NCBI RefSeq assembly: GCF_030013205.1
Contig: NZ_CP122648.1
Reading direction: 5' to 3' (one strand)
From: Escherichia coli
GTDB taxonomy: Bacteria; Pseudomonadota; Gammaproteobacteria; Enterobacterales; Enterobacteriaceae
Length of the DNA stretch: 64,000 nucleotides
A model generated the notes under the pieces. That model did not search any database. It was given only the letters and a program-made list of their open reading frames with translations, and was not told where the DNA came from. Position numbers and translations under genes: made by a program. Below, one piece after another: positions 19,841-50,945 of this stretch (within the stretch, counting starts at the first letter, position 1; the number at the start of each line of letters is the position of its first letter).

Positions 19841-19876
19841 CCGAATGGCGGCGCTATTGCCGCCATTCGGTTATTT
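19841..19876. terminator. Terminator hairpin between convergent ssuB and pepN
   Basis: Perfect 12-bp stem CCGAATGGCGGC / GCCGCCATTCGG with 6-nt loop, followed by TTATTTAT on plus strand; occupies the entire ssuB-pepN gap. Confidence 0.7.
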
Positions 19877-48771: not shown

Positions 48772-48801
48772 GAAATGAAAAAAGCACCCGACAGGTGCTT
48801 T
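48772..48801 (-). terminator. Rho-independent terminator downstream of ihfB
   Basis: 8-bp stem AAAGCACC / GGTGCTTT with 5-nt loop, followed on minus strand by UUUUUCAUUUC; about 27 bp after ihfB stop. Confidence 0.7.
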
Positions 48802-48827
48802 TCTCGCGTTCAAGTTTGAGTAAAAAC

Positions 48828-49112
48828 TTAACCGTAAATATTGGCGCGATCGCGCAGTTCTTTACCTGGTTTAAAGTGAGGAACGTATTTTCCTTCCAGT
48901 TCTACTTTATCGCCAGTCTTCGGATTACGTCCGGTACGTGGTGCGCGGTAGTGCAAAGAGAAACTGCCGAAACCGCGGATTTCAATACGCTCGCCCTGCG
49001 CAAGAGTCGAGGCCATATGCTCCAGCATCTCTTTTACTGCATCTTCAACCGTCTTGGCGGGAATGTGCGATTGCTGGGTGGCAAGTCTTTCTATCAATTC
49101 TGACTTGGTCAT
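48828..49112 (-). CDS. ihfB: Integration host factor beta subunit
   Basis: 94-aa [97 protein letters not shown]; matches E. coli IhfB. Confidence 0.97.
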
Positions 49113-49271
49113 GATTCCTCCGGTTCCTTAAAGGCAAATTTAGCGGCTGCTGTTGCTGCATTGATTAAGGGCGGCCGTAGCCGCCCTTAGTGCTTGATTA
49201 CAGGACGAAACCTGCAATCTGTCAAGTAAACTCAACAAACTTCGGAATAAAAATCCCGAAGAGTCAGAGAA

Positions 49272-50945
49272 TTACTCGCCTTTAGCTGCTTTGAAAGCTT
49301 CAGCCATTGCGTTGTTGGAGAAGTTTGCATCTTCCTGTTTGTTAACAGTTGCGATTGCATCTTTCTCGTCAGCTTCGTCTTTCGCACGAACAGACAGGCT
49401 GATTGCGCGGTTTTTACGATCAACGCCGGTGAATTTAGCTTCAACTTCGTCGCCAACGCTCAGAACCAGGGTAGCGTCTTCAACGCGGTCACGGGATGCT
49501 TCAGAAGCACGCAGGTAACCTTCAACGCCGTCAGCCAGTTCTACGGTTGCGCCTTTAGCGTCAACTGCAGTTACTTTACCGGTTACGATAGCGCCTTTCT
49601 TGTTCAGAGCAACCCAGTTGTTGAACGGATCTTCTGCGAGCTGTTTAACGCCCAGGGAGATACGTTCACGTTCTGCGTCAACCTGCAGAACAACTGCAGC
49701 GATTTCGTCGCCTTTTTTGTATTCACGAACTGCTTCTTCGCCTGCAACGTTCCAGGAGATGTCAGACAGGTGAACCAGGCCGTCGATGCCGCCGTCCAGG
49801 CCGATGAAGATACCGAAGTCAGTGATAGACTTGATTTTACCTTCAACACGGTCACCCTTGTTGTGGGTTTCCGCGAACTGCTGCCACGGGTTAGCTTTGC
49901 ACTGTTTCAGACCCAGGGAGATACGACGACGTTCTTCGTCGATATCCAGAACCATAACTTCCACTACATCGCCAACGTTAACAACTTTGGACGGGTGGAT
50001 GTTTTTGTTGGTCCAATCCATTTCGGAAACGTGTACCAGGCCTTCAACGCCTTCTTCGATTTCAACGAAGCAGCCGTAGTCGGTCAGGTTGGTCACGCGA
50101 CCAGTCAGTTTGGTACCTTCCGGATAACGTTTAGCGATAGCTACCCACGGATCTTCACCCAGCTGTTTCAGGCCCAGGGATACACGGGTACGTTCGCGGT
50201 CGAACTTCAGCACTTTAACAGTGATTTCATCGCCAACGTTGACGATTTCGCTCGGATGCTTAACGCGTTTCCAGGCCATGTCAGTGATGTGCAGCAGGCC
50301 GTCAACGCCGCCCAGATCAACGAATGCACCGTAGTCAGTGAGGTTCTTAACGATACCTTTAACTTCCATGCCTTCCTGCAGGTTTTCCAGCAGCTGATCG
50401 CGCTCTGCGCTGTTTTCGGATTCGATAACGGCACGACGAGAAACAACAACGTTGTTGCGCTTCTGATCCAGCTTGATTACTTTGAATTCAAGCTCTTTGC
50501 CTTCCAGGTGCAGAGTGTCACGCACCGGACGAACGTCTACCAGAGAACCTGGCAGGAACGCACGAATACCGTTCAGCTCAACAGTGAAGCCGCCCTTAAC
50601 TTTGCCGTTGATAACACCGGTAACAGTTTCAGCATCTTCGTAAGCTTTTTCCAGCGTGATCCAGGCTTCGTGACGTTTAGCTTTCTCACGGGACAGCAGA
50701 GTTTCACCGAAGCCGTCTTCTACTGCGTCCAGAGCAACGTCAACTTCGTCACCTACCTGGATTTCCAGCTCGCCCTGGGCGTTTTTGAACTGCTCAGCCG
50801 GGATGGCGGACTCAGATTTCAGACCAGCGTCAACCAGTACTACGTCTTTGTCGATAGCAACAACAACGCCACGAACGATAGAACCCGGGCGGGTTTCGAT
50901 TTCTTTTAAGGACTCTTCAAAGAGTTGAGCAAAAGATTCAGTCAT
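49272..50945 (-). CDS. rpsA: 30S ribosomal protein S1
   Basis: 557-aa [52 protein letters not shown]... with six S1 repeats; matches E. coli RpsA. Confidence 0.97.

Follow-up and report, generated by a model that had tools for sequence, protein, structure and literature searches.

A GC-rich hairpin without a U-tract between rpsA and ihfB of Escherichia coli, at the mapped end of one transcript and the mapped start of another

Introduction

What does a GC-rich hairpin without a U-tract do between two genes transcribed in the same direction? The question is raised by the 159-nt spacer between rpsA (49272..50945, minus strand) and ihfB (48828..49112, minus strand) in Escherichia coli, within the 64,000 nucleotides of contig NZ_CP122648.1 that were analysed (the window). 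Transcription of ihfB is known to occur both from a promoter of its own and together with rpsA. A first-pass annotation, made from the sequence, had placed a hairpin AAGGGCGGC-cgta-GCCGCCCTT at 49167..49188. It took this for a weak or partial terminator, or an RNA-processing or stability element, with read-through into ihfB. The hairpin is present there, and published Term-seq and SMRT-Cappable-seq data support that reading. The interpretation is incomplete, since it overlooked that the ihfB promoter (ihfBp) starts at the first base of the hairpin and that a second, U-tailed hairpin lies near the rpsA stop codon.

The rpsA-ihfB spacer

The annotation of rpsA and ihfB is shared with many complete E. 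coli genomes that are 100% identical over 701 nt around the hairpin. Window positions (x) convert to MG1655 as NC_000913.3 position = 963,828 + (49112 - x), with no indel between. On the mRNA strand, the rpsA stop codon (49272..49274, minus) is followed by a first hairpin (H1), the promoter elements TTGACA, a 17-nt spacer and TGTAAT with a second hairpin (H2) within them, the GC hairpin (H3), a 45-nt leader, the ihfB Shine-Dalgarno sequence GGAGG (49121..49117, minus; invariant in the 11-sequence alignment described below) and the ATG (49112..49110, minus). Downstream of ihfB, the terminator scan found a hairpin with a U-run (48776..48805, minus); window 48776 corresponds to 964,164 of NC_000913.3, the mapped 3' end of the ihfB-only transcript (Yan 2018). 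The ihfB leader differs from K-12/MG1655 at a single position, window 49146 (plus-strand T, A in the mRNA; gccgctAaatt instead of gccgctTaatt), which lies 17 nt downstream of the RNA 3' end mapped at H3.

H3 (49166..49189, minus strand) reads U-AAGGGCGGC-UACG-GCCGCCCUU-A as RNA and has a folding energy of about -20.1 kcal/mol. Because rpsA and ihfB both lie on the minus strand, the transcribed hairpin is the reverse complement of the one first described, and its loop is UACG, a UNCG-type tetraloop closed by a C-G pair. The stem had been described as perfect over 9 bp; the pairing is indeed perfect, while the length is 10 pairs, seven of them G-C, the outermost joining T49189 to A49166. The distance from rpsA, first given as 85 bp, comes to 82-83 nt counted from the last base of the stop codon, and a further 53 nt separate the end of H3 from the ihfB ATG. 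As had been noted, there is no T-run on either flank. The RNA tail is AAUCAAUGC past the full stem and UUAAUCAAU past the G/C core, with U-tract scores of 0.64 and 2.02, and the terminator scan makes no call here.

A chance palindrome is no explanation for H3. Perfect hairpins of at least 10 bp with loops of 3-8 nt occur nine times in the window, against 0.43 +/- 0.62 in dinucleotide shuffles, and the best hairpin of the spacer, at -20.1 kcal/mol, compares with -5.6 +/- 2.8 kcal/mol in shuffled spacers; H3 is far beyond chance. Of 5426 complete E. coli genomes, 5425 carry it as a single copy, with one-base differences over the 36 nt searched in 94 genomes. Two variants were seen in which the outer stem positions are unchanged: in strain AMSHJX01 the loop-closing pair carries a G to A change, and in strain KH_005 the loop is UAUG in place of UACG, as in Superficieibacter. 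H3 appears in the minimum free energy (MFE) and centroid folds in both of its transcript contexts, the rpsA 3' UTR and the ihfB 5' UTR. A search of Rfam 15 with permissive E-values gave no match reaching a gathering threshold; the best overlap was a PhrS fragment at 16.8 bits against 37 (E = 0.087).

With the threshold lowered to 9 bp and loops of 3-8 nt, the window holds 12 perfect hairpins in all, compared with 1.6 expected. Ten further ones start at window positions 1132, 1866, 4207, 19841, 25540, 27244, 28609, 32129, 53453 and 63321. Several are flanked by the A/T-tracts typical of bidirectional terminators; others have no T-runs, such as CCGAATGGCGGC-GCTATT-GCCGCCATTCGG at 19841.

Between the rpsA stop and the mapped 3' end lie 112 nt, which folded into four hairpins in series, with an MFE of -49.9 kcal/mol as against -24.7 +/- 3.4 kcal/mol in shuffles (z = -7.5). 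H1, CUUCGGGAU-UUUU-AUUCCGAAG followed by UUUGUUGAGUUU (49240..49261, minus), was found by the terminator scan 10 nt past the rpsA stop. Its stem has 9 bp and its U-score is 3.39. No other terminator-like site of the spacer has a U-rich tail, and H1 resembles a terminator more than H3 does. No 3' end is listed at H1 in the Term-seq table of Adams 2021 or the SMRT-Cappable-seq table of Yan 2018. The sequence of H1 varies between genera, and some small hairpin stands at that place in each genus. H2 is an imperfect palindrome, GAUUGCAGG-UUUCGU-CCUGUAAUC (49196..49219, minus), which forms a hairpin in the fold of the rpsA 3' UTR. As DNA (GATTGCAGG-TTTCGT-CCTGTAATC) it occupies the spacer and -10 element of ihfBp. 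In Citrobacter the palindrome is perfect (10-4-10), and its loop is TTCG. Changes between A and G opposite T keep A-U or G-U pairing, as an RNA would, and some genera have mismatches. H2 may function as a hairpin in the RNA of the rpsA 3' UTR or, as DNA, as an operator.

The RNA 3' end of rpsA transcripts

The first-pass annotation had proposed 3'-end mapping and a comparison with mapped rpsA-ihfB transcripts as checks, and had held that its reading would fall if no 3' ends lay here. Such ends have been published. Term-seq placed a 3' end at 963,777 (+) of NC_000913.3, which is window 49163 (minus strand, ...GCCGCCCUUAAUC-3'), 3 nt past the H3 stem, with 9,925 reads in LB at OD 0.4 and again in a second condition (Adams 2021, PMC7815308, supplementary file 3). 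It was classed there as 'orphan', 51 nt upstream of ihfB, and filed among '3' ends in 5' UTRs'; the table lists no further 3' ends within 200 nt upstream of ihfB. Its intrinsic-terminator score is 14.4, where values of at least 3 were taken as suggestive (Adams 2021). The Rho score is 1.34 ('No', not significant; Adams 2021), a value confounded by the fact that coverage downstream of 963,777 in cells treated with bicyclomycin, which inhibits Rho, includes RNA initiated at ihfBp.

SMRT-Cappable-seq has revealed full-length primary transcripts from 961,720 to the same nucleotide (Yan 2018, PMC6131387; rows from M9 or rich medium). For this unit, 337 reads were counted at the start site, 109 end at the termination site, 67 pass it and 9 stop at most 50 bp downstream. 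The matching counts for the unit from a second promoter, 961,861 to 963,777, are 77, 38, 15 and 0. Both units were flagged 'novelTTS', and the same study lists rpsA-ihfB and cmk-rpsA-ihfB read-through units. From these counts, 59-72% of the rpsA transcripts that reach 963,777 end there and the remainder read through into ihfB. Past the site, read-through reads continue for a median of 149-192 nt, compared with 387 nt to the ihfB terminator. There is thus a precise in vivo 3' end at H3, on which Rho inhibition has no significant effect.

The ihfB promoter and its start site

The start of the ihfB-specific transcript has been mapped to window 49189 (minus strand; 963,751 in NC_000913.3, 962,974 in NC_000913.2). 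Kim 2012 (PMC3415461) reported it in the older numbering, supported by 71 reads; the 5' UTR is 77 nt long, and the sequence given there for -50..+1 ends in ...TGTAATCAAGCACT / ...TTGACAGATTGCAGGTTTCGTCCTGTAATCAAGCACT. An ihfB-only unit from 963,751 to 964,164 was also found by SMRT-Cappable-seq (Yan 2018, PMC6131387). In these two independent start maps the start site is the first base of the H3 stem, and H3 is therefore also the 5'-terminal stem-loop of the mRNA that ihfB makes from its own promoter. The initiating base is U, an uncommon initiating nucleotide; the two datasets nonetheless agree. Together with the rpsA 3' end, this start means that the two transcription units overlap by 27 nt.

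The promoter elements can be read from the sequence. A -10 element TGTAAT (49197..49202, minus) lies 8 nt upstream of the mapped start, and a -35 element TTGACA (49220..49225, minus) is separated from it by the 17-nt spacer; the ihfB promoter thus sits within the rpsA 3' UTR. The promoter scan made no call in the spacer, since it accepts only -10 elements whose second base is A, and ihfBp was identified from the published start-site data instead. ihfBp is listed in RegulonDB as a sigma-38 promoter, one of only 2 among 169 with a recognisable -35. Folding of +1..+120 of the ihfBp RNA placed H3 at +1..+24 in both the MFE and centroid structures, with 0-1 unpaired nucleotides 5' of it, and the search for a competing or alternative structure in this stretch found none.

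Conservation across Gammaproteobacteria

Loci were collected by a scan for IhfB with one genome per species. This gave 80 loci, 74 of which have rpsA directly upstream. In 67 of these 74 the spacer hairpin is better than 95% of its own shuffles (p<=0.05), and in 63 it is better than 99%. Stem sequences vary by lineage, G-U pairs are tolerated, and loops are often UNCG or GNRA, which fits a role at the RNA level. A sequence-only MAFFT alignment of -85..+3 from 13 genera of Enterobacteriaceae and Erwiniaceae was folded with RNAalifold, and H3 was the only consensus structure. Compensatory, two-sided changes occur in 7 of its 10 pairs. Paired cells reach 85%, compared with 32-64% when the partner is slid, and none of 500 shuffles matched the observed covariation. 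H3 is a conserved RNA structure.

Among close relatives, 11 sequences were aligned: three E. coli strains, E. albertii, one further Escherichia species, Citrobacter, Pseudocitrobacter, Kluyvera, Pseudescherichia, Superficieibacter and one metagenome-assembled genome. Both promoter hexamers, the 8-nt gap and a 9-bp stem stand out as invariant islands in 11/11, while the region of H1 and the leader of ihfB have diverged, with indels. The same ihfB promoter module is visible in a Salmonella table. Outside the Escherichia-like group the hairpin lies 4-16 nt past the rpsA stop (5-16 nt in Yersinia or Erwinia), and the whole spacer measures only 60-93 nt; therefore no promoter can fit between stop and hairpin.

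The tail of the hairpin also differs between lineages. The U-tract score past the G/C core is 4.8-6.1 in Vibrio and Aeromonas, where the hairpins are canonical terminators. It is 2.5-3.1 in Kluyvera, Pseudocitrobacter, Pseudescherichia and other close relatives of E. coli with the more U-rich tail UUGUUUAA, 2.0 in Escherichia and Citrobacter, and 0.05-0.4 in Rahnella, Acerihabitans, Photorhabdus, Erwinia and Pantoea persica. The hairpin is thus mostly U-less in Enterobacterales and carries a canonical U-tract in Vibrio and Aeromonas.

Other features of the region vary as well. Direct repeats surround H3 in E. coli (UAAUCAAGCAC / UAAUCAAUGCAGC, window 49150..49203, minus), and contain the WATCAA half of the IHF consensus without its TTR part. 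Citrobacter has an exact 9-nt TAATCAATG on both sides of H3. The hairpin is flanked by AACGG ... ACGGUAG(UUUAG) in Yersinia, Pectobacterium, Hafnia, Photorhabdus and others. Core Vibrio has a different solution to the rpsA/ihfB gene boundary. Its rpsA hairpin is a terminator complete with A-tract and U-tract, and between this and ihfB come an additional 127-197 nt of spacer that contain a conserved TTGGAAT...TACTATAAT block. In Salmonella SL1344, late-stationary-phase dRNA-seq placed a weak antisense start of 1-4 reads, 'LSPncRNA52', at about 1,024,059 (-), equivalent to window ~49230-49260 (+). It opposes the rpsA 3' end, and upstream of it the ihfB promoter module is found in reverse complement.

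Origin and function of the shared hairpin

H3 is an RNA hairpin at the boundary of two overlapping transcription units and probably combines non-canonical termination with protection of a 3' and a 5' end, the latter by later co-option. Polymerases from the strong rpsA promoters cross ihfBp, itself within the rpsA 3' UTR. The E. coli 3' end would arise mainly from termination that depends on the hairpin, is inefficient and non-canonical, and takes place over the A/U-rich tail UUAAUCAAU. Termination is favoured for this end because the end is insensitive to Rho inhibition, has a high terminator-model score and is followed by more U in relatives. H3 would then shield the rpsA mRNA from 3' exonucleases and so stabilise it. 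At the 5' end of the ihfB mRNA it may hinder RppH and 5'-end-dependent RNase E, as in ompA/papA; by analogy, a stem with no unpaired 5' nucleotide should slow decay and stabilise the ihfBp transcript. Base pairing at the 5' terminus is an established stabiliser of E. coli mRNA (Emory, Bouvet and Belasco 1992; Bouvet and Belasco 1992). Since the hairpin is present across Gammaproteobacteria, its 3'-end role appears ancestral. The 5'-end role would have been co-opted later, in the Escherichia/Citrobacter/Kluyvera/Salmonella group, which has the promoter module just upstream of the hairpin.

Several observations count against termination as the full account. The tail has no U-tract (0.64-2.02), and a 3' end only 3 nt from the full stem also fits exonuclease trimming. 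If H3 terminates, ihfBp transcripts should also stop at +27. The short read-through reads hint at decay intermediates. Termination cannot be the general role of the hairpin, because many Enterobacterales keep it with near U-free tails; in lineages whose tails have no U at all, trimming must be its role. It is possible, but rather less probable, that H3 is only an exonuclease barrier in E. coli too. Polymerase would then not stop at H3: transcripts would be cut or terminated further downstream, either diffusely or, through RNase E, in the A/U-rich leader of ihfB, and PNPase and RNase II would trim them back to the hairpin, giving a precise 3' end and allowing the rpsA and ihfB segments to decay at different rates. 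The missing U-tract, the closeness of the end to the stem base, the retention of a U-less hairpin at this place by most Enterobacterales and the heterogeneous ends of read-through reads beyond the site all agree with this, and stem-loops that block PNPase and RNase II form a described class (Dar and Sorek 2018, PMC6061677). A purely protective hairpin is harder to reconcile with the terminator-model score, with the greater U content of the tail in close relatives and with the Rho score, non-significant although confounded by downstream initiation at ihfBp. The tail is moreover A/U at 8 of 9 positions and would therefore give a weak RNA-DNA hybrid.

The position of the 3' end, 26 nt downstream of the ihfB start and filed by Adams 2021 under 5' UTRs, raises the alternative that H3 is an attenuator of ihfBp, a regulated premature terminator at +27 that tunes IHF-beta, with the rpsA end incidental. 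This is improbable: the full-length reads that end at 963,777 begin at rpsA promoters, no antiterminator fold competes with H3, and homologous hairpins occur with no promoter upstream of them. A regulated 5' UTR attenuator would call for a mutually exclusive structure or a ligand or uORF element, and +1..+120 contains no competing fold. An RNase III site at H3 was rejected, as a 10-bp stem is too short. Still more remote is the idea that the palindrome works as DNA, as the operator of a dimeric protein, in IHF autoregulation or as a mobile REP-like element. It does cover +1..+24 of a promoter reported to be autoregulated, and the IHF core half-motif stands on both flanks. Against this, the RNA ends map exactly to the two feet of the palindrome, and other lineages have replaced the stem by different complementary sequences and tolerate G-U pairs in it. 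An IHF operator is unlikely, as each flank carries only WATCAA and no TTR, and a REP/BIME or mobile element was ruled out, the hairpin being single-copy in E. coli (median one place per genome in 5425 genomes).

The boundary hairpin with partial termination, as preferred here, could be extended to a growth-phase switch shared by the two units, which would set the ratio of S1 to IHF-beta; this is a tentative and rather unlikely addition. During fast growth, heavy rpsA transcription would occlude ihfBp and ihfB would be supplied by read-through. In stationary phase, as rpsA falls, the sigma-S/sigma-70 promoter would take over and yield a long-lived mRNA capped by H3. ihfBp might also release a 27-nt hairpin RNA.

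Significance

Public tables already contain both RNA ends, and RegulonDB lists the promoter, so the feature is known at the level of data. No paper noting the double use of H3 was found; a Reg-Seq preprint and a paper on mRNA stability mention ihfB only incidentally. H3 is a leaky gene-boundary element of an ordinary kind, neatly used twice, and its importance beyond annotation is small. At this locus one hairpin without a U-tract forms the boundary of two mRNAs simultaneously, and the shared hairpin explains how an entry labelled '5' UTR / orphan' or 'novel TTS' is really the end of the rpsA mRNA. As a natural test case it lends itself cleanly to two questions, whether such an end arises by termination or by exonuclease trimming, and whether a 5' hairpin protects mRNA. 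The series from Vibrio and Aeromonas through Kluyvera and Pseudocitrobacter to Rahnella and Photorhabdus may illustrate how terminators drift between mechanisms.

Comparison with known systems

Like a canonical intrinsic terminator, H3 is a GC-rich stem-loop directly upstream of a precise 3' end that is insensitive to Rho inhibition, and the orthologous hairpins of Vibrio and Aeromonas are such terminators, with A- and U-tracts. Unlike one, it lacks the 7-8 nt U-tract, ends only 59-72% of transcripts and lies downstream of the start of the next promoter instead of upstream of that promoter. Dar and Sorek 2018 (PMC6061677) described stable stem-loops without U-rich 3' sequence which define steady-state ends by blocking PNPase and RNase II. 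H3 resembles these in its stability, in the lack of uridines after it and in the 3' end immediately downstream. It differs in that the class was defined on Rho-dependent transcripts, whereas the bicyclomycin effect at H3 is not significant, and in that the next gene is translated 51 nt away. With the 5' stem-loops of ompA and papA (Emory, Bouvet and Belasco 1992), H3 has in common that a primary transcript starts with it; the likeness is one of position, and H3 also ends the mRNA of the upstream gene.

H3 therefore lacks one defining feature of an intrinsic terminator, the U-tract, and has the sequence features of the U-less protective class. The operons rpsO-pnp and rpsU-dnaG-rpoD have internal promoters and partial terminators. 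The rpsA-ihfB boundary follows the same type in combining a ribosomal-protein gene, a leaky hairpin and a downstream gene served by both read-through and its own promoter. It departs from that type in that ihfBp precedes the hairpin, so that the two units overlap by 27 nt and the structure is common to both.
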